25,444 nucleotides of DNA from a virus. The translations under genes and the position numbers were made by a program. The notes under the pieces were generated by a model. It was not told where the DNA came from. It made no database searches and saw only the letters and a program-made list of their open reading frames with translations. The stretch lies in the IMG/VR virus record IMGVR_UViG_3300047550_006186; one strand, written 5' to 3'. Of this stretch, positions 40-15,577 are shown one piece after another; the first letter of the stretch is position 1, and every line of letters starts with the position of its first letter.

Positions 40-230
40 AGTGAAATCAATCAATGGATGCAGGCCAACAACATCACCTGGCCCTGGCCAAGGGAAACCC
101 AGGTCCAATTTCTGCTCACCTGGGGTTAGTCTTTCGCTGCGCAAGCCTGTTGGGCTGACCCATTGGGGTCTGATGTCAGCCACTACGATCAAGCAGGAAG
201 CTGTTGGTGTTTAGACCAACAATAGTTCAC
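40..230 (+). mobile_element. Degenerate relic of IS200/IS605-family tnpB 3' end plus right-end (RE) hairpin (omegaRNA-like scaffold, no TnpB ORF)
   Basis: nt 170-230 GATGTCAGCCACTACGATCAAGCAGGAAGC...TAGTTCAC aligns with the reverse complement of the intact tnpB 3' end and RE at 6311-6400. Further upstream blocks (CATTGGGG, GCCTGT, ATCAATCAATGGA) align with gaps. No intact ORF. Confidence 0.6.
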
Positions 231-292
231 TGTGATCCAAAAAAAATTTCCGCGGCAGAAGGTAAATATAGTAGTTCAACCCCGGAGAGCCT

Positions 293-3410: not shown

Positions 3411-4996
3411 CCAGATTTATTTTTATCACAGGTGGTGTTGTCAGCAGTCTAGGCAAGGGTATTGTGGCTGCCAGCTTGGGCGCACTGCTGCAAGCTCATG
3501 GTTGGAGTGTGAGGATTAGAAAAATGGACCCCTATTTGAATGTGGATCCAGGCACCATGAGTCCTCTACAGCATGGGGAAGTGTTTGTCACACAAGATGG
3601 AGCAGAAACTGACCTGGACTTGGGCCACTATGAACGATTTACAGGCGTGCATGCCACACGCAAAGACAATATCACTGCGGGTAGAATTTATCAACAGGTG
3701 ATTGCCAGAGAACGACAGGGAGGATATTTGGGCGCAACGGTGCAGGTGATTCCTCACATAACAGATGCTATCAAAACTGCCATTGTGGAAGACACCACGC
3801 AGGAAGATTTTGTGATCTGTGAAATTGGTGGCACAGTGGGTGATATTGAGAGCTTGCCATTTTTGGAAGCCATCCGTCAGTTGGCCAACGAATTGGGCAC
3901 TGAACAGGTGATGTTTGTGCATGTGACTCTGCTGCCCTGGATAGAAACTGCTGGTGAACTCAAAACCAAACCCACTCAACACAGTGTGAGAACACTGTTG
4001 AGCTTGGGCATCAGCCCACACATGTTGGTTTGCCGAACTGACAGACCCATACCACTCAGTGAGCGCAAAAAGCTCAGTCTATTTTGTAATGTCAAGTCCA
4101 GTGCTGTCATAGAGGCCCAGAATGTCAGCAACATTTATTCAGCACCAGTTGTGTATATGCAGGCTGGCATGGACAAGGCTATATTTGAACATTTTGACAT
4201 CACCTACACTATGCCCTCTGTGGAAAATTGGCAAAATCTTATCAATCAAATTGAATCAAGACTACAATCTGTGACAATTGGTGTGGTGGGCAAATATGTC
4301 AACCTCAGGGACAGCTACAAGAGTTTGGCAGAAGCTTTGGAACACGGTGGCATTGCCAATGGATCACATGTGAATGTCCTATGGATTGATTGTGAGAAAA
4401 CCAATTTGGTGGACGATTTGCTGATGTGTGATGGTATTTTGGTGCCTGGTGGATTTGGTGCCAGAGGCATCAAGGGCAAGCTGGAGGCCATCACCCATGC
4501 TAGAACTCACAACAAACCATTTTTGGGCATCTGTTTGGGTATGCAATTGGCTGTGATTGAAGCTTTGCAGAGTGTGGGTCTCAAGGAGGTCAACAGCACA
4601 GAATTTGGCACATGTGGCCAGCCAGTGGTGGATATTTTGCCAGGACAAAATCAAACGCTGGGAGGCACAATGCGACTGGGCAACTATCCTGCCATCCTAG
4701 ACCCCACCAGCCTGGCCAAAAAAATCTACCAACAGAATCTTATTGAAGAACGGCACAGACACAGATATGAAGTGGTGCTCAATGCTCATACCCGACAAGA
4801 ACTGGATCAATTGGGCATGAAGGTCACTGGCACCAGTCCTGACCAAGTGTTGCCGGAAATTGTGGAAATACCCACTCATGCTTGGTTCATGGGAGTTCAA
4901 TTTCATCCAGAACTTACTAGCAAACCCTTGAATCCACATCCCATATTTGTTAGCTATATACAAGCTTGCATCAATCACAAGGAAAATCAAAGATGA
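3407..4996 (+). CDS. pyrG: CTP synthase
   Basis: FITGGVVSSLGKGI, DPYLNVDPGTMSP, QHGEVFVT.DGAETDLDLGHYERF, GGTVGDIESLPFLEAIRQ and a glutaminase domain (GICLGMQ, ERHRHRYE) are present. The ATG overlaps the purM stop (ATGA). Confidence 0.97.
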   Translation: MTRFIFITGGVVSSLGKGIVAASLGALLQAHGWSVRIRKMDPYLNVDPGTMSPLQHGEVFVTQDGAETDLDLGHYERFTGVHATRKDNITAGRIYQQVIARERQGGYLGATVQVIPHITDAIKTAIVEDTTQEDFVICEIGGTVGDIESLPFLEAIRQLANELGTEQVMFVHVTLLPWIETAGELKTKPTQHSVRTLLSLGISPHMLVCRTDRPIPLSERKKLSLFCNVKSSAVIEAQNVSNIYSAPVVYMQAGMDKAIFEHFDITYTMPSVENWQNLINQIESRLQSVTIGVVGKYVNLRDSYKSLAEALEHGGIANGSHVNVLWIDCEKTNLVDDLLMCDGILVPGGFGARGIKGKLEAITHARTHNKPFLGICLGMQLAVIEALQSVGLKEVNSTEFGTCGQPVVDILPGQNQTLGGTMRLGNYPAILDPTSLAKKIYQQNLIEERHRHRYEVVLNAHTRQELDQLGMKVTGTSPDQVLPEIVEIPTHAWFMGVQFHPELTSKPLNPHPIFVSYIQACINHKENQR

Positions 4997-5912: not shown

Positions 5913-6314
5913 ATGGAAATATCAGATCTAAAAATAATATCAAACATGATCATCAACAGCAAAAAATGGTTTGGTGAGGATTGGCTGTGGGGCTCTCCAC
6001 ATACAGGTGCAATCAAATATCATGTGCCGTTGTGGGATTTGTACTTGACTAGAGAATATGTGAACGTGCCCAAGGGCAAGATCCATATGTTCGGTAGGAA
6101 ATTCTACAATGGCATCACCTATGTTCGATGGGAGTTTGCAACCGATTTAGGTATCGTGAACTACAAAGAGCTTGTTCATTGGACCACAAGTAGAGGATGG
6201 CAGTTATTTGCAGATGAACAAATTCTAGAGGAGATGGAATATGTGGGTGATTTGCAATCGTTTGAAAATGCTATCACTTGGTTCAAACTCATGAACACTC
6301 TTGACATTCCGTGA
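5913..6314 (+). CDS. Hypothetical protein (133 aa); its stop codon is supplied by the IS right end
   Basis: ORF without recognisable motifs. The TGA at 6312-6314 lies inside the terminal GTGAAC of the IS RE. Confidence 0.4.
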   Translation: MEISDLKIISNMIINSKKWFGEDWLWGSPHTGAIKYHVPLWDLYLTREYVNVPKGKIHMFGRKFYNGITYVRWEFATDLGIVNYKELVHWTTSRGWQLFADEQILEEMEYVGDLQSFENAITWFKLMNTLDIP

Positions 6315-6460
6315 ACTACCACGCCCTAAAGGGCTGTGGCTTCCTGCTTCATCGTAGTGGCTGACATCTCACCCCAATGAGTGAGAATATCTGCCACCAC
6401 ATCCACAGGCGCTTGGGGCAGTTCCTGCCCTGCATGATCTAGTGTCCATTGTTGATGTCC
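6295..6460 (-). ncRNA. Predicted TnpB omegaRNA (scaffold = tnpB 3' end plus RE; guide = ~16 nt flanking the RE)
   Basis: By analogy with characterised TnpB systems. Conserved blocks (AGGGCAGGAACTGCCC hairpin, CGCCTGTGGA, CATTGG, RE hairpin) are shared with two tnpB-less copies at 40-230 and 13600-13777. The predicted guide is the reverse complement of ~6295-6310. Confidence 0.45.
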
Positions 6461-7601
6461 CCAATTACAGATGTTCACTGCTGCATTTATGTCCCTGTGC
6501 TCAGTTACACCGCAATGATCACAATGATATTCTCTTTGATGGAGATCCATGTGACTTTTGCGTGCACCACATGCACTACAGGTCTTGCTACTGGGTAGCC
6601 ACTGATTGATCTTGACCAAATGATGGCCTTGGAGTTGACACTTGTAGGCTAATGCACCTGTCAGCATGGCCCAACCCGCATCAGCTATGCACTTGGCTGC
6701 GGGCTTGCTCTTGCGTCTCATCTCTTCAATTTTCAGTGTTTCAACACACACCAGGTCATGTGATTTGGTTATTCTCGCACTGGTCTGATGTATATGGTTT
6801 AATCTTTGGCAGCGAACCAGATCATGGGTTCTTGCCAGTCTTGTTTTTGCTTTTGTTCTATTCCTACTTGCTTTTTGTTTTCTCGATAGTTTGCGTTGTA
6901 GTAATTTGATACGTGATTGTTTTTTGGATAATGGCTTGGGATTTGCCACTAGCTCACCAGTTGATAGTGCCGTGAACTTGCTGTTGACATCCACACCCAC
7001 TGGATTGGCAATTTGATCAACCAATGGTAGTTCCAAGACATCAACCACAAAACTGGCATACCAGCCACGTGGTGTTTGAGTGACAGTCACACCCTTGAAT
7101 AGGGGTAGATGTCTGTGCAATACAATCTTGATATCACCAATCTTGGGTAGATATAACTTGTTGTTGTCAACTCTCACATTTTGTTGATATCTAAAGCTAA
7201 CAGGTGTTGTGTATTTGCTTTTGAACCGGGGAAAGCCAGCGCCTGTTTTCTTCATATTTTTCAGTGCTGTATCCAAGTCGCTTATGCTTTGTTGTAGTAC
7301 CTGACTGTAGGTATCTGATAACCACAGGTTGTTTTTCTTCAAATCAACCAATTGCTTGGCCATATCATTATACCAAACAAACTTTTTGGTCAATTGATAT
7401 TCATCAATGTTCACACGGAGGAAATGATTGTATAGATATCGCACTGCTCCGCCCGCAGAACGCATCTGTTGTTCCTGTTGTGGGGTTGGATAAATTCGAT
7501 ATCTGTATCGCAATTTCATATATCTATTTATATAATTCAGTCAATCGCCGCTATCCATCCAGGGGCTAAAGCGCCCTGGCTTTCCGCGGCGGGAGATAAT
7601 T
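6311..7601 (-). mobile_element. TnpB-only IS200/IS605-family (IS1341-type) insertion sequence, ~1.29 kb
   Basis: tnpB is flanked by an RE hairpin (6311-6353, GTGAACTACCACGCCCTAAAGGGCTGTGGCTTCCTGCTTCATC) and an LE (7546-7601, ...CTATCCATCCAGGGGCTAAAGCGCCCTGG CTTTCCGCGGCGGGAGATAAT). The same end sequences recur as solo copies elsewhere in the window. Confidence 0.85.
6326..7519 (-). CDS. tnpB: RNA-guided endonuclease TnpB (IS605 OrfB family)
   Basis: N-terminus MKLRYRYRIYPTPQQEQ, RuvC-I VGVDVNS, RuvC-II CVETLKIEEM, and a zinc finger CSACG...HCDHCG followed by RDINAAVNI (RuvC-III). The TAG stop lies inside the RE. Confidence 0.93.
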   Translation of the reverse strand: MKLRYRYRIYPTPQQEQQMRSAGGAVRYLYNHFLRVNIDEYQLTKKFVWYNDMAKQLVDLKKNNLWLSDTYSQVLQQSISDLDTALKNMKKTGAGFPRFKSKYTTPVSFRYQQNVRVDNNKLYLPKIGDIKIVLHRHLPLFKGVTVTQTPRGWYASFVVDVLELPLVDQIANPVGVDVNSKFTALSTGELVANPKPLSKKQSRIKLLQRKLSRKQKASRNRTKAKTRLARTHDLVRCQRLNHIHQTSARITKSHDLVCVETLKIEEMRRKSKPAAKCIADAGWAMLTGALAYKCQLQGHHLVKINQWLPSSKTCSACGARKSHMDLHQREYHCDHCGVTEHRDINAAVNICNWGHQQWTLDHAGQELPQAPVDVVADILTHWGEMSATTMKQEATAL

Positions 7602-10514: not shown

Positions 10515-11746
10515 CAGCCAATATCAAACTGGTACACATTTGTAATTTTTGTAACAAAAACAGCACACAAGTCCGAACACTAGTAAGTGGTAATGGAGTG
10601 TTTATTTGTAATGAATGTATTGAATTGTGCAACCAGGCATTGCAAGACCAGCAGACGGAAGCTAGACCTCCCTCTCAAAGTATTGCATGGACTCCCACGC
10701 AAGTGGTAGACTACTTGGACAAGCATGTGATTGGGCAGCAATTGGCCAAAAAAACACTGGGTGTGGCTATCTACAACCATCTCAAGAGGTTGAACTATCC
10801 ACAAGTGGATCAAGTGGTGTTGGACAAAAGTAATATTTTGATGATAGGCAGCAGTGGTGTGGGCAAGTCTCACATGGTGAGCACGTTGGCCAAAATTTTG
10901 GATGTGCCATTTGCTGTTGTGGATGCCACAAGTTTGAGCCAAACAGGATATGTGGGATTGGATCCAGAAGAATGTTTGGTAAGATTGTATCAGGCAGCAG
11001 ACAATAACATGGAATCTGCTGAAAAAGGCATTGTTTTCATTGATGAAATTGACAAAATTAGTCGCAAGAGTGGGGAAAATACCAGTACAACCCGTGATGT
11101 GAGCGGAGAAGGTGTGCAACAAGCATTGCTCAAAATTATAGAGGGTAGTATGGTCAAATTTCAACCCAACAGTGGTAGAAAAAACCCCAATGGCGAGTTT
11201 TTAACTATCAACACTCGCAACATATTGTTCATTTTGGGAGGCGCATTTGAAGGGCTACACAAATTGATCAGCAACCGATTGCAAGACACTTCCAGTCAAG
11301 TGGGATTCAACAGTCAACTGAAATTGGCCAACCAACAACTGGAATGGCAGTTGATACAACAGGTGGAAACTGAGGATCTTATCAATTATGGATTGATTCC
11401 TGAGTTGGTGGGTAGGATTCCTGTGATCTTGCCATTTGAAAATTTAGATTTGCATACACTGACAAGAATTCTTGTAGAGCCACAAAACAGCATTGTAGCT
11501 CAGTTCCAAAAACTGTTTGAACTGGAAGGTATTGATTTGGTTTTTGAATCTGCTGCGTTGACAGCTATTGCTCAACAAGTGCTGCAAAGCCAAACAGGGG
11601 CACGGGGTTTGAGAAGGGTGATTGAACGACTGTTGTTGAACAGTCAGTATCAAATTGTCAGTCTCAAGCAGCAACAGGTCAAACAACTGATAGTCACAGC
11701 CCAATGTGTGACAATGGGCGTAGAACCAAAAAAAGTAATTGACTGA
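10511..11746 (+). CDS. clpX: ATP-dependent Clp protease ATP-binding subunit ClpX (atypical Walker A)
   Basis: N-terminal C4 zinc finger HICNFCNK...[13 protein letters not shown]+ core [61 protein letters not shown]. The Walker A reads GSSGVGKS instead of the near-invariant GPTGSGKT. Confidence 0.9.
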
Positions 11747-12321
11747 TGAATCAAACACGCTATAACTCAAACATCCAAAACAACAAGGACTCAAAACAAA
11801 ACATGCGGGACTCAACAACCCTTGCCAATGACCGTATTCGAGTGCCACAAGTGAGATTGATCACAGAAGATGGTACAAACTTGGGTGTGGTCAACACTCG
11901 GGATGCTCTTGCAAGGGCACACAATCAAGGCCTGGATCTAGTGGCCATCAACACACAGGCTCAGCCAATGGTGGCCAAGATTCTTGACCTCAACAAACAT
12001 TTGTACGAACTCAAAAAAGCAGCCAAGGAACGTGCAAAACAAAGTCGCGAAAATCAAGTGGTCCTCAAGGAGGTGCAACTGCGACCTGTTACTGATGAAC
12101 ATGATATCCACATCAAGGCTCGCAATGCACGCGGTTTTTTGGATGATGGATGCAAGGTCAAAGTAGTAGTCAAATTCCGAGGCAGAGAGATGGCCTATCG
12201 AGAACTGGGCATGAGCGTAATCAATAACTTTTTACAAGCGGTGGGAGATCACAAATTGGAACGTGAACCTACCATTCAAGGCAACAGCATTCATGCACTG
12301 CTGATGCCTGTGACTAAGTGA
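11746..12321 (+). CDS. infC: Translation initiation factor IF-3
   Basis: NDRIRVPQVRLI.EDG..LGVV.T..AL..A...GLDLV ... AQPMVAKILD; C-domain VKFRGREMAYRELG. The ATG overlaps the clpX stop by 1 nt. Confidence 0.9.
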   Translation: MNQTRYNSNIQNNKDSKQNMRDSTTLANDRIRVPQVRLITEDGTNLGVVNTRDALARAHNQGLDLVAINTQAQPMVAKILDLNKHLYELKKAAKERAKQSRENQVVLKEVQLRPVTDEHDIHIKARNARGFLDDGCKVKVVVKFRGREMAYRELGMSVINNFLQAVGDHKLEREPTIQGNSIHALLMPVTK

Positions 12322-12322
12322 G

Positions 12323-12370
12323 TTGCCTTTAGGGCCTAAAGGCACCTGGTTTTCTGCGGCGGGAGATAAA
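12323..12370 (+). repeat. Solo IS left-end-like repeat (hairpin GCCTTTAGGGCCTAAAGGC plus CTGGTTTTCTGCGGCGGGAGATAAA)
   Basis: The 3' half matches the IS LE at 7575-7601 and the reverse complement of 14839-14867. A perfect 9-bp-stem hairpin sits directly after the infC stop, and the GGGAG of the repeat sits 12 nt before ATG 12378. Confidence 0.7.
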
Positions 12371-13096: not shown

Positions 13097-13125
13097 TTGA
13101 CAGTACAAACACATGTGTCTACAAT
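13097..13125 (+). promoter_or_regulatory. Sigma70-type promoter for rpsU (TTGACA, 17-nt spacer, TACAAT)
   Basis: TTGACA at 13097-13102, TACAAT at 13120-13125, and SD AGGAAGG 9 nt before ATG 13154. Confidence 0.65.
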
Positions 13126-13153
13126 CTGTGGGTAGATAGGAAGGTACTACAAA

Positions 13154-13384
13154 ATGGATGACAACTACAACTTTCACAAAAAAGGTTTGACTGTGAGAGT
13201 TATCAATGGCAATTTGGAAGGCGCCCTGAGTAGGCTCAAAAGATTGATGAATCAGGAAGGTGTCAACAAAGAATTGCGCAAGCGTAGGTTTTATGAAAAA
13301 CCCACTACCAAAAGGCGTCGAGAAAAGGCTGAGGCACGTATCCGTTGGCTACGCAAAAAAGCCACCTTGGATCCTTGGGCATAA
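13154..13384 (+). CDS. rpsU: 30S ribosomal protein S21
   Basis: RRFYEKPTTKRRREKAEA matches the S21 hallmark REFYEKPT(T/E)ERKR. 76 aa, basic. Confidence 0.9.
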   Translation: MDDNYNFHKKGLTVRVINGNLEGALSRLKRLMNQEGVNKELRKRRFYEKPTTKRRREKAEARIRWLRKKATLDPWA

Positions 13385-13473
13385 CTTCCCATAGGGAACA
13401 AGGGTCCAGATAACACGAATAGGAGGTGGCCCAAACTTGCCCACGACCCACGTTCCCCAAGGAAGTTTACGTT

Positions 13474-13516
13474 CAGCCGCTATCCATCCAGGGGACAAAG
13501 CGCCCTGGATGGATAG
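13474..13516. repeat. IS left-end-type palindrome (CTATCCATCCAGGGG-ACAAAG-CGCCCTGGATGGATAG)
   Basis: The left arm is identical to the IS LE at 7551-7580. Here it is completed to a 15/16-bp perfect hairpin. Confidence 0.7.
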
Positions 13517-13549
13517 AAACTTGTGATTAAATTATTTTTTTGATATATA

Positions 13550-13578
13550 TTGCATTTGTGTCAACCTCTATGTATAAA
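13550..13578 (+). promoter_or_regulatory. Sigma70-type promoter (TTGCAT, 17-nt spacer, TATAAA) driving the IS-derived RNA
   Basis: TTGCAT at 13550-13555, TATAAA at 13573-13578, with an AT-rich UP-like tract upstream. Confidence 0.5.
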
Positions 13579-13584
13579 CAATAT

Positions 13585-13810
13585 TAGTGATGTAGCAAGA
13601 GCCCCCACGGCTTGGGATATCCCGGTAGAGATACCGCAGAGACTAGGGCAGGAAGTGCCCTGAGTCCGTAAAAAAATATCGCCTGTGGACCGGAACACAC
13701 CAATGAATAAGCCCATTGGCTAAAGGTGAACTGGAATCTAGCAGGAAGCCACAGCCCTAGAGGGCGTGGTACTTCACAAAAGCGGTGATACAAATCACCG
13801 CTTTCTCTCT
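13585..13810 (+). ncRNA. Stand-alone omegaRNA-like (tnpB-3'/RE-derived) RNA with its own promoter and terminator, no TnpB ORF
   Basis: Blocks AGGGCAGGAAGTGCCC, CGCCTGTGGA, CATTGG and the RE GCAGGAAGCCACAGCCCTAGAGGGCGTGGTACTTCAC (13741-13777) are colinear with the intact tnpB 3' region. A hairpin follows at 13779-13804 (AAAGCGGTGAT-ACAA-ATCACCGCTTT) plus TCTCTCT. Confidence 0.45.
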
Positions 13811-13843
13811 AAATAGAGACGAACATTTTTGAGATAACACATT

Positions 13844-14884
13844 ATGAAACTACTTGATTTATTTGAAGACAATTCGATAACTACACTCGCTCCAGGAGAG
13901 AAACGAGTCAGGCTGGATCTCAAGATACGCAACTTGCAGGCTATTCAAAAGAAAATGAAGGAGCTCAGAGACAGTCTCTACAAAAGTATTGATCTCAAAT
14001 ATCAATTTACCAAGGATGCTGCTCTACAAGCAGCACTTGAGCAATTGGAAAAACGCATAGTTCTCAAACTGGATTATTTGGAAAAAATGAAATCCAGACC
14101 CACTACTGGTGTCCAAAAGATGTTTGCTATCCTGGACAGTGAATGCAGTGAGTTTTTGAAAGTATTCAAGGAAACACAAAAATTCCTATACAGAGGACTG
14201 AGAGATACTGTGAGTGTATTTGAAGGCAGAAGCAGAGAAGATCGCAGTCCCCAAGACAGTACAAATGAAATAAGTGAAAGATTTGATCAAGCTCTCAAAA
14301 ATGCTGGATTTAGTGCATTGCGCAGCAACAGCATTTTTACCACAACCAGCCTTGGGTTTGCTAGCACGTATGGGCACACGCTTTATTTGATCTTTCCCAA
14401 GAATGGCTTCCATTTCCTTTATACAAATACAAAAGATCTCATACTGAACGATTGGTCACTAATTGCTGATGTAAACGAAATGCGTGAATTCAAAGAAAAA
14501 TTGCGCAATTGGTTGGAAGCCAATGTGGAAGATTGGAAAAACACGGATATAGGCTATGGGGTCGAAAACGACACCTGGCAAACTATGTTCTGGATACTGC
14601 AACGTAATTTTGGGGAACTTGGAAACCCTTACAAGATTCCAGAAGAATTTAATGTGAATATTGAAGATTTTATCACTGATCAAGGGATCGTCAATAGTTT
14701 GGAACCCAAGCAAACTGATTTGGCAGAAGCCATGGTGGATGGTAGAGAAATTTTGATAAATGGAGAATATTGGGCTCTCAAAAGAGAGGATTGGATTGAC
14801 ATAATTGGCCAGCATTATATTGGCGATAATTATAATGAAATTATCTCCCGCCGCGGAAAACCAGGTGCCCGTCAGCTACAATGA
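13844..14884 (+). CDS. Hypothetical protein (346 aa); its C-terminal 15 codons are encoded by an IS-end repeat
   Basis: Long ORF with no recognised domain. The last codons (...ISRRGKPGARQLQ) run through the LE-like repeat at 14839-14867. Confidence 0.5.
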   Translation: MKLLDLFEDNSITTLAPGEKRVRLDLKIRNLQAIQKKMKELRDSLYKSIDLKYQFTKDAALQAALEQLEKRIVLKLDYLEKMKSRPTTGVQKMFAILDSECSEFLKVFKETQKFLYRGLRDTVSVFEGRSREDRSPQDSTNEISERFDQALKNAGFSALRSNSIFTTTSLGFASTYGHTLYLIFPKNGFHFLYTNTKDLILNDWSLIADVNEMREFKEKLRNWLEANVEDWKNTDIGYGVENDTWQTMFWILQRNFGELGNPYKIPEEFNVNIEDFITDQGIVNSLEPKQTDLAEAMVDGREILINGEYWALKREDWIDIIGQHYIGDNYNEIISRRGKPGARQLQ

Positions 14885-14925
14885 TGAAGCAGGAAGCCAC
14901 AGCCCTAGAGGGCGTAGTAGTTCAC
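14839..14925 (+). mobile_element. ~90-bp miniature LE-RE junction element (MITE-like derivative of the TnpB IS)
   Basis: AATTATCTCCCGCCGCGGAAAACCAGG is the reverse complement of the IS LE terminus. It is joined after ~17 nt to GATGAAGCAGGAAGCCACAGCCCTAGAGGGCGTAGTAGTTCAC, which is the RE in tnpB orientation. Confidence 0.7.
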
Positions 14926-14926
14926 T

Positions 14927-15577
14927 CTAGGAAGTTCTGTTCTGTGGTTGGCTATGTTTATCTATCCACTCTTGGGCAATTACACTGCTGGGTGGTTGTT
15001 TGATCCAACGTAGCACATGACGTTTCACGCTATCCAACTTGGGTCTGCTGCCGCTGTTGTCCACAAACCAATATTGGTCACCAAATAACTCAGCATAATG
15101 ACGCGCGTTGTCTTTCAAAGCTTGATATCTCTTGGTGACTTCCAGTTCAGGAACTTCTCTACCTGTCACCAGAGCTCTGCTAGCCACACGTTGTAGTGCT
15201 GTGTCCAGTGGGGTCCACACATGTATCATGCCCACATCATACCCCATCTGTTGCAATTGTTGTGTGGTTTCCTTGATACTGGGCAACCACCAAGCAGTGG
15301 TGTCCATGATAATACCCAATCTCAGATCAATATAGTTTGCCCGTTGTCTTCTCACAATGTCGCCATATTTTTGGTAATCACCCTCTCTGCCCATTTTGAG
15401 CCAGGCTGTACGAATCTCATCAGCATCCACAGTTTTTAGGCCCATGCCACCAAACAATTCACTACGCACTGTACTCTTGCCACTGCCGGGACTGCCAGCC
15501 ATAAACACAGCCTTGAAAATACCCCAGTCATGCACACCTTCTTCAAGGTCATGCTCATGTAAATCTTGATATCTCAT
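14927..15577 (-). CDS. P-loop kinase of the zeta-toxin / AAA_33 family
   Basis: Walker A AVFMAGSPGSGKST, DADEIR, and GY.VGMIHVWTPLDTALQRVASRALVTGREVPE fit the zeta-toxin/AAA_33 kinase pattern. The stop lies 1 nt from the mini-element. Confidence 0.6.
   Translation of the reverse strand: MRYQDLHEHDLEEGVHDWGIFKAVFMAGSPGSGKSTVRSELFGGMGLKTVDADEIRTAWLKMGREGDYQKYGDIVRRQRANYIDLRLGIIMDTTAWWLPSIKETTQQLQQMGYDVGMIHVWTPLDTALQRVASRALVTGREVPELEVTKRYQALKDNARHYAELFGDQYWFVDNSGSRPKLDSVKRHVLRWIKQPPSSVIAQEWIDKHSQPQNRTS

Follow-up and report, generated by a model that had tools for sequence, protein, structure and literature searches.

The insertion sequence IS608 carries TTAC at its left end (LE), a purine-rich tetranucleotide 5' of each of its two hairpins and a TCAx cleavage motif a few bases 3' of the hairpin of its right end (RE); the tetranucleotide pairs in use are reportedly AAAG/TTAC for the LE and GAAT/TCAA for the RE. 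For ISDra2, in which the guide RNA of the nuclease TnpB (omegaRNA) spans the RE as well as the 3' end of tnpB and takes its guide from the flank, the transposon-adjacent motif (TAM) is TTGAT. In IS1341-type elements, tnpB is the sole gene between ends of the IS200/IS605 type. A homing model for TnpB has been put forward by Meers et al. (10.1101/2023.03.14.532601), who also noted, in Geobacillus stearothermophilus, omegaRNA-encoding palindrome-associated transposable elements (PATEs) that depend on TnpB supplied in trans, and homing into co-infecting phages has been discussed (PMC13565253). The present analysis concerns a stretch of viral DNA of 25,444 nt (IMG/VR record IMGVR_UViG_3300047550_006186; hereafter the window), which carries a complete, tnpA-less element of 1285 bp at positions 6311–7595 of the minus strand. 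We consider it very likely that this element is a non-autonomous, tnpA-deleted IS608-like copy (IS200/IS605 family, IS605 group) residing in the genome of a large aquatic phage.

Both ends of the element were fixed by multi-copy comparison across 60 loci, which included eight viral-contig loci whose TnpB is 70–90% identical to that of the window, and 30 stretches added by a search with a 16-mer of the RE tip, several of which are chance matches in unrelated sequence. At the RE, relatedness of the flanks is lost right after ...GTAGTTCAC, so that 6311 is the last base of the element. At the LE it is lost right before TTAY|CTCCCGCCGCGG, and similarity among the copies starts at CTCCCGCCGCGGAAAG. 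In the original prediction, which covered 6295–7601, the RE terminus GTTCAC at 6311 was correct, but the LE limit of 7601 lies 6 nt too far out, the copies giving 7595. The four bases 5' of the LE, which probably serve as TAM and TnpA target, are TTAT in the window copy (7596–7599, minus strand; ATAA on the plus strand). Collecting the copies, as had been proposed for deriving the TAM, gave TTAC nine times, TTAT four times and TGAC once among 14 distinct LE copies; TTAY therefore precedes the LE in 13 of the 14, and all three window LE copies in this set have TTAT. On this comparison, the TTAY flank corresponds to the IS608 target. The flanks TTAT and GGAA of 6311–7595 are not duplicated, i.e. 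the insertion appears to be without target-site duplication.

The LE (7520–7595, minus strand) contains a subterminal imperfect hairpin (approximately 7547–7590), read directly from the sequence, with the layout GCCGC-GGAAAG-CCAGGGCGC-TTTA-GCCCCTGG-ATGGATA-GCGGC and with compensatory stem changes across L001–L007. The terminal module of the RE (6311–6348, minus strand), defined from 29 distinct copies, is composed of AGCAGGAAG, the hairpin CCAC(A)GCCC-UUUA-GGGCGUGG and then UAGUUCAC; as DNA it reads GAAG-CCAC(A)GCCC-TTTA-GGGCGTGG-TAGTTCAC. Its stem changes are also compensatory (GAGC/GCUC in L004 and CUGUUGGUC/GACCAACAG in L006, the latter stem being CTGTTGGTC/GACCAACAG in the DNA letters of L006 and L058). 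These are typical IS200/IS605 ends: the subterminal palindromes are imperfect and bulged, the LE differs from the RE, and there are no terminal inverted repeats. The family resembles ISHp608 of Helicobacter pylori (IS605 group) in its subterminal imperfect hairpins, in having TTAC 5' of the LE and GAAAG 5' of the LE hairpin, and in having GAAG 5' of the RE hairpin and an RE ending in TCAC. In contrast to ISHp608, TTAT is as frequent as TTAC in the window, and the RE cleavage motif of the window copy is TCAC, not TCAA.

All 29 distinct REs end in (G/C)TTCAC and the sequences beyond are unrelated, as expected of a mobile element present in multiple copies. A 24-mer of the RE tip had five matches in the window versus none expected (100 shuffles), and looser patterns placed the other RE termini of the window at 230, 13777, 14925 and in both arms of 18905–18940, with flanks that are all different. 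The GTTCAC-type terminus thus occurs five further times in the window, at four loci, as well as at more than 25 other viral-contig loci with unrelated flanks. The original prediction had counted five other copies with the same terminus; the termini and their unrelated flanks were found again, but the "copies" are not equivalent, comprising mini-elements, fragments and a palindrome (see below). The RE module was also detected beside TnpBs only ~35% identical to that of the window. At the loci encoding them (L012, L017, L018, L019, L024, L025, L032 and L037), the same ~40-nt module, GAAGCAGGAAGCC-hairpin-TAGTTCAC, ends the tnpB gene, and the omegaRNA interior is much shorter. A single TnpA-recognised end would seem to be common to unrelated TnpB cargoes.

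The ancestry of the window copy was traced through locus L031 (IMGVR_UViG_3300047550_005931), whose tnpB is 90% identical to the window tnpB. Directly upstream, on the same strand and with a 4-nt overlap, L031 carries tnpA for a 143-aa Y1 transposase (Pfam Y1_Tnp, 6e-37). The closest solved relative of this TnpA is that of ISHp608 (E 6e-36, ~46% identity), with the HUH motif and the catalytic tyrosine aligned, and the gene order, tnpA then tnpB, is also that of ISHp608. The LEs of L031 and of the window copy are near-identical over ~70 nt (one mismatch), and global alignment of the two revealed one clean deletion of ~450 bp that removes tnpA and its leader. By ancestry, the window copy most probably is a non-autonomous, tnpA-deleted IS608-like element of the IS605 group; unlike ISHp608, it is without tnpA and its host is not a bacterium but, it would seem, a large aquatic phage. 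The lack of tnpA had been predicted correctly. The term "IS1341-type", applied at the same time, describes the gene content well but does not hold as ancestry, in that the tnpB-only state goes back to a recent tnpA deletion in an IS605-group element. In L031 (1499–5680), the element splits a ResIII-helicase-like open reading frame (ORF) into ORFs of 492 aa and 331 aa. When the flanks were joined at TTAC| and |ATC (the removed element being TTAC|...CAC|), one continuous reading frame was obtained, which supports the boundaries modulo 3. No uninterrupted homologue of the split ORF was found in the phage collection or in viral contigs, and a search of 5.8 billion proteins with this ORF returned only that protein itself.

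The tnpB gene (6326–7519, minus strand), identified from the ORF list, Pfam and alignment, encodes a protein of 397 aa in which the HTH_OrfB_IS605, OrfB_IS605 (RuvC) and Cas12f1-like_TNB (zinc-ribbon TNB) domains all score above the Pfam cut-offs. The protein matches PHROG 506 (E 7e-106) and, in a phmmer search, aligns over its full length with ISDra2 TnpB (8bf8/8exa; E 1.5e-48). Counted by position along the latter alignment, D177 (GVDVNS), E260 (VETLK) and D343 (HRDINAA), encoded at 6989–6991, 6740–6742 and 6491–6493 of the minus strand, fall on D191, E278 and D361 of ISDra2. Together with the CxxC...CxxC zinc finger (C314/C317/C333/C336), this confirmed the three RuvC motifs and the zinc finger that had been recognised previously, and no catalytic substitution was found on alignment. 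The domain order, the DED triad and the zinc finger are shared with the ISDra2 TnpB-omegaRNA complex (PDB 8exa, 8bf8 and 8h1j), which differs from the window system in its TAM and in its omegaRNA sequence, the window protein being known from sequence alone. The dN/dS of tnpB against relatives 88–90% identical is 0.17–0.19, i.e. purifying selection acts on the TnpB protein. The gene is thus predicted to encode an intact RuvC nuclease, which by analogy would be active and would use the TAM.

The tnpB start is without a Shine-Dalgarno sequence. The sequence TATAAATA is located at 7525–7535 (minus strand), 8 nt upstream of the ATG, and is also present in L001–L003. This octamer, which we take to be the T4 late-promoter consensus, is at the same time the -10 region of the omegaRNA-only elements (described below) of L016 and L033. 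The phage late transcription machinery may drive the element. Among the relatives, the tnpB of L006/L007 (1869–3069 of L006) has a frameshift near codon 100 and is a pseudogene.

The putative omegaRNA scaffold (6311 to about 6490, minus strand), predicted from the fold, the covariation and the synonymous divergence (dS), takes in the RE and the final ~55 codons of tnpB, an arrangement that would match ISDra2. The last 160 nt have a minimum free energy fold z-score of -4.2, and the fold comprises hairpin 1 (GGGCAG-GAA-CUGCCC), a long stem-loop closed by CCUGU/GCAGG, and the terminal RE hairpin. These three helices were extracted from 16 diverse copies, which included the ~35%-identical TnpB lineages and the insertion sequence of Thermus phage YS40_Isch. 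In the resulting core, 92% of the cells pair, a value somewhat inflated by the pairing-aware heuristic used to locate the segments of hairpin 1, and 11 of the 20 pairs have changed on both sides; none of 500 shuffles reached this pairing, and slid controls were 31–57% paired. The closing helix is invariant across the 16 copies, and the covariation of the terminal hairpin could just as well stem from TnpA recognising this hairpin as DNA. The covariation supports a three-helix omegaRNA core and refers to these helices only, the interior between the strands of the closing helix not being convincingly alignable between classes. In addition, dS drops 1.5- to 6-fold over the final 52 codons of tnpB, where the predicted omegaRNA overlaps the coding sequence. 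The annotated IS200/IS605 element of YS40_Isch (L054; MK257744.1, ~13670–13868) has the same core and terminus (GGGCUGGAACGGCCC ... GCCUGUGGA ... AUGAAACAGGAAGC-hairpin-CAGUUCAC), and the omegaRNA core therefore appears to be conserved far beyond the aquatic phage lineage.

A permissive Rfam scan (351-nt search) returned only RAGATH-18 (RF03064), matched over the full model at 6341–6409 of the minus strand, with a score of 19.8 bits (E 0.32) versus a gathering threshold of 44.9. RAGATH-18 is the scaffold core of the guide RNAs (right-end RNAs, reRNAs) of IS607 TnpB (PMC11061315). The part in common is the closing helix with its adjacent bases, CCUGUGGA...GAUGAAGCAGGAA, in the expected place and on the expected strand. 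In contrast, the interior differs, the published link is to IS607 and not to IS605, and in the window copy a TnpA-type hairpin lies between the motif and the guide. The likeness appears to be meaningful, yet it does not amount to membership of the family.

The architecture of TnpB and its omegaRNA (Karvelis 2021, PMC8612924; Meers 2023) places the guide in the flank 3' of the RE. The predicted 16-nt guide of the window copy accordingly reads 5'-GGAATGTCAAGAGTGT-3' (6295–6310, minus strand), in the place, immediately left of 6311, to which it had been assigned in the original prediction. Two further details anticipated there were also recovered: the stop codon of tnpB (TAG, 6326–6328) falls within the RE hairpin loop, and the neighbouring 133-aa ORF (5913–6314, plus strand) borrows its TGA stop (6312–6314) from the RE tip. 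In the predicted empty site, ...GACATTCC|ATAA..., this ORF would end at the same residue with TAA, and the 133-aa protein would therefore be unchanged by the insertion. The original claim, an intact IS200/IS605 element of the TnpB-only kind whose ends can be defined and whose guide can be predicted, is upheld by the protein domains, the catalytic triad, the 60-locus comparison, L031, the covariation and the signature of selection.

According to the mechanism that we favour, which is the one published for IS200/IS605, a Y1 HUH TnpA supplied in trans, e.g. that of L031, would recognise the subterminal hairpins on the top (minus) strand and cut on the 3' side of TTAY (LE) and of ...GTTCAC (RE) (single-strand "peel and paste"), and the single-stranded circle would be inserted 3' of another TTAY with no target duplication. 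Precise excision by TnpA would leave the donor joint ...GGAATTAT|GGAATGTC..., and the junction of the element-free allele is predicted as ...GACATTCC|ATAATTCC.... The omegaRNA scaffold would be encoded by the RE plus the final ~55 codons of tnpB, and transcription 16 nt beyond 6311 would yield the guide GGAATGTCAAGAGTGT. The TnpB-omegaRNA complex would then cut the element-free allele, 5'-TTAT-GGAATGTCAAGAGTGT, which could arise by TnpA excision or be provided by a co-infecting phage without the insertion, and recombinational repair from the element-bearing copy would restore or spread the element (homing). Such RNA-guided homing without TnpA is plausible in lytic phages because of their heavy recombination during co-infection. 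We infer expression and processing of the RNA, as well as mobilisation in trans, from the known systems. The locus adds a clean example of a known system, not a new mechanism, and does not change what is known of the workings of the family.

The other derivatives found in the window are of several kinds. An omegaRNA-only, PATE-like mini-element of 307 nt occupies 13471–13777 (plus strand; putative TAM TTAC at 13467–13470, RE ending at 13777). It contains a promoter-like TTGCAT (13550–13555)-N17-TATAAA (13573–13578) and a ~190-nt omegaRNA-like scaffold, whose omegaRNA blocks are common to the tnpB-linked copies and for which a consensus structure was obtained. The class to which it belongs is protein-less and ~300 nt long, with seven copies in four viral contigs and the window, three of the seven in one viral contig; each copy consists of an LE, a conserved TTGCAT-N17-TATAAA/T, a ~190-nt RNA and an RE, and is followed by a different 3' flank. 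Sigma-70 and terminator scans of 13100–13900 found nothing above background; the final base of the -10 hexamer of the motif does not satisfy the scanner, which leaves conservation across the seven copies as the sole basis of the promoter call. The omegaRNA-only copies of L013 and L016 have a complete canonical LE with TTAC. In 13471–13777 the LE is remodelled, with TTAC kept and the GGAAAG guide segment replaced by a palindromic extension, and given this change the copy may be immobile. Its flank and predicted guide, AAAAGCGGTGATACAA (13778–13793), runs into a hairpin. This strong hairpin, AAAGCGGTGAT-ACAA-ATCACCGCTTT, lies directly after the RE and is followed by a second small hairpin (13778–13822 in all); the predicted 16-nt guide is therefore half of a stem, and the hairpin could end transcription or mask the guide.

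A second mini-element, of 81 nt (14845–14925, plus strand; putative TAM TTAT at 14841–14844), is built from the first 25 nt of the LE and the last ~56 nt of the RE, and is without the 3' half of the LE hairpin. The last 13 codons and the stop of the ORF at 13844–14884 are supplied by this mini-element, and a zeta-toxin/AAA_33-like kinase ORF (14927–15577, minus strand) ends 2 nt from its RE tip. Like the omegaRNA PATEs of G. stearothermophilus (Meers et al. 2023), 13471–13777, 14845–14925 and their kin combine an IS200/IS605 LE and RE with the lack of a protein gene, the LE being incomplete in both window copies, and some of these derivatives retain the omegaRNA scaffold and would depend on TnpB made elsewhere (in trans). 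They differ from those PATEs in being phage-borne, in the conserved promoter-like element of the omegaRNA-only class, and in the palindromic extension in the LE of 13471–13777.

The remaining traces comprise an LE-derived fragment (12331–12365, minus strand; putative TAM TTAT at 12366–12369), a solo RE or omegaRNA 3' remnant of a sister subfamily (141–230, plus strand; terminal stem CUGUUGGUG/ACCAACA as in L006/L058), adjoined by an inverted 15-nt LE start with TTAC (247–265, minus strand), and a perfect 36-bp palindrome in which the RE tip is joined to its own reverse complement (18905–18940). Perfect or near-perfect 36-bp RE-tip palindromes are also present in L021 (~3460–3495) and L026 (~6732–6767), and the LE palindromes at 13476–13520 of the window and in L010 resemble the same kind of fold-back extension. 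Snap-back synthesis and RE–RE joining by TnpA are both candidates for the origin of the palindromes. In L005 (900–1190), two right ends lie tail to tail, 54 nt apart, the second of them derived from an internally deleted tnpB remnant.

Several results weigh against the reading of the window copy as an IS608-like element that can be mobilised in trans and is equipped with an omegaRNA. No tnpA, and no Y1 TnpA product, was found in the element or in the 25-kb window. Sigma-70 promoter and terminator scans of the element gave nothing above background, and Rfam at its gathering threshold gave no match and no curated omegaRNA model for the element, so that the covariance-model check suggested in the original prediction yielded only the sub-threshold RAGATH-18 hit; the inflation of the pairing percentage also belongs here. 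No empty site for the window insertion was found among relatives of the 133-aa ORF in viral and metagenome contigs, and the exact boundaries rest for this reason on the copy comparison and on the analogy with IS608. Searches with the junction 18-mer and 22-mer returned no real empty site (the single 18-mer match, L039, was rejected as a chance match), an exact-protein look-up for TnpB and the 133-aa ORF found neither on record and no empty allele, and BLAST of the joined flanks of 17 elements against all collected loci revealed no empty site. Several runs yielded Logan metagenome contigs that match the window with 99.5% identity and break exactly within the repeats described above (7566/7573 and 13604), and the same insertion is present at this identity in at least three independent metagenome assemblies; given this recurrence, the window copy may be fixed and not mobile at present. 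Taken further, the copy would be a fixed and immobile relic in a phage without tnpA, engaged in neither transposition nor homing, with tnpB intact merely as the insertion is recent. The missing tnpA, the identical insertion in several samples and the failure of the searches for an empty allele fit such a relic, as does the decay seen in its kin (the frameshifted tnpB of L006/L007, and window mini-elements without parts of the LE). However, the dN/dS of 0.17–0.19 was obtained between copies at different sites and indicates long-term selection on the protein, both ends are intact, with an LE near-identical to that of the autonomous L031, the same viral population also harbours an autonomous copy, and the insertion sites are many and distinct; we therefore regard the relic as unlikely.

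The omegaRNA-only class raises the question of whether the phage has co-opted the nuclease, with one TnpB using several guide RNAs in trans (its own and that of 13471–13777) against competing phages or host DNA in a proto-CRISPR-like manner. The seven omegaRNA-only elements, each with the promoter-like motif and a different 3' flank, their clustering as three copies on one viral contig, and the presence of kin of this TnpB lineage on jumbo-phage-like contigs of ~410–420 kb, one of them with several copies, all speak for recruitment. It is nevertheless a doubtful proposition: every guide is merely the local flank, and for none of the six window guides did the window or the 60 related loci contain another TAM-flanked match, which is evidence against a defensive or offensive repertoire. 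Moreover, omegaRNA-encoding PATEs have already been read as selfish passengers (Meers et al.), and the remodelled LE of 13471–13777 fits decay as well as domestication. Equally hard to credit on present evidence is the related idea of a phage-resident multi-guide TnpB served by independently transcribed guide genes, with their own promoters and guides, for homing or for excluding competing phages; if true, the arrangement would look like a transitional form linking selfish insertion sequences to the CRISPR-like effectors of phages, e.g. Cas12j. That the repeated hairpins are phage regulatory elements, e.g. terminators, with only an incidental likeness to the tnpB flank, would suit their position at gene ends or between convergent genes (12331–12369, 14845–14925 and 18905–18940) and the palindrome 18905–18940, which has no IS-like partner end. 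This explanation was rejected as very improbable, since the same LE and RE bracket tnpB or tnpA and tnpB at unrelated sites in many contigs, TTAY precedes the LE, and the terminator scan found nothing at these sites, with no T-tract after the hairpins. Domesticated, nuclease-dead TldR-like repressors derived from TnpB exist, some of them in prophages (PMC10705468), but the intact triad (D177, E260 and D343, aligned with the catalytic residues of ISDra2) and zinc finger, the intact transposon ends, and a guide that is the element's own flank led us to reject an RNA-guided repressor as the least credible of these explanations.

Read as a tnpA-deleted IS608-like copy, the locus would represent a well-annotated natural TnpB system, with exact ends, a TTAY TAM, a 16-nt guide, a covariation-supported omegaRNA core and, in a sister copy, the cognate TnpA; the system could be used directly for biochemical or genome-editing tests. 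It would be one part of an IS608-like "ecosystem" of large aquatic phages that includes autonomous, tnpB-only and omegaRNA-only elements, mini-elements and palindromic derivatives. Although unsurprising to the specialist, the phage setting and the set of derivatives should provide a useful natural test bed.

The window itself looks like part of the genome of a large aquatic phage. Almost all of its ORFs are on the plus strand, and its genes include those for PurM, CTP synthase (PyrG), PurN, PTPS, dCMP deaminase, ClpX, IF3, ribosomal protein S21, Hsp20, thymidylate kinase and dUTPase. This set of translation and metabolism genes is unusually rich; the homologues of IF3 (IF3_N and IF3_C; PHROG 9787, E 2e-49) and ribosomal protein S21 are encoded at 11746–12321 and 13154–13384, respectively. 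The CHASE2-cyclase of the window shares ~40% identity with those of Methylophilales phage Melnitz and 32% with its counterpart in Pelagibacter phage HTVC008M, and megablast found no near-identical phage in GenBank. The search of 5.8 billion proteins returned many TnpB relatives at 60–92% identity, all of them metagenomic, and relatives of at least 60% identity were confined to metagenomic and viral contigs. A scan of one genome per bacterial species, which detects close relatives only, gave no relative above 36% identity. We provisionally describe the distribution of this TnpB as phage-restricted.

Two long contigs with TnpB relatives were inspected (409 kb and 419 kb), and both look like jumbo phages. 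In each of them, the LE, the RE and TTAC of the tnpB copies are the same as in the family described here. On the 419-kb contig, the surroundings of TnpB include T4 rIIB, a T4-type spanin, ClpP and a fragment of Pol III alpha. The 409-kb contig (Ga0645785_00068; L058, 8001–11480) carries two tnpB genes of the sister subfamily 1 kb apart, with mostly hypothetical neighbours, and at least three TnpB paralogues from this contig are listed in the protein search.

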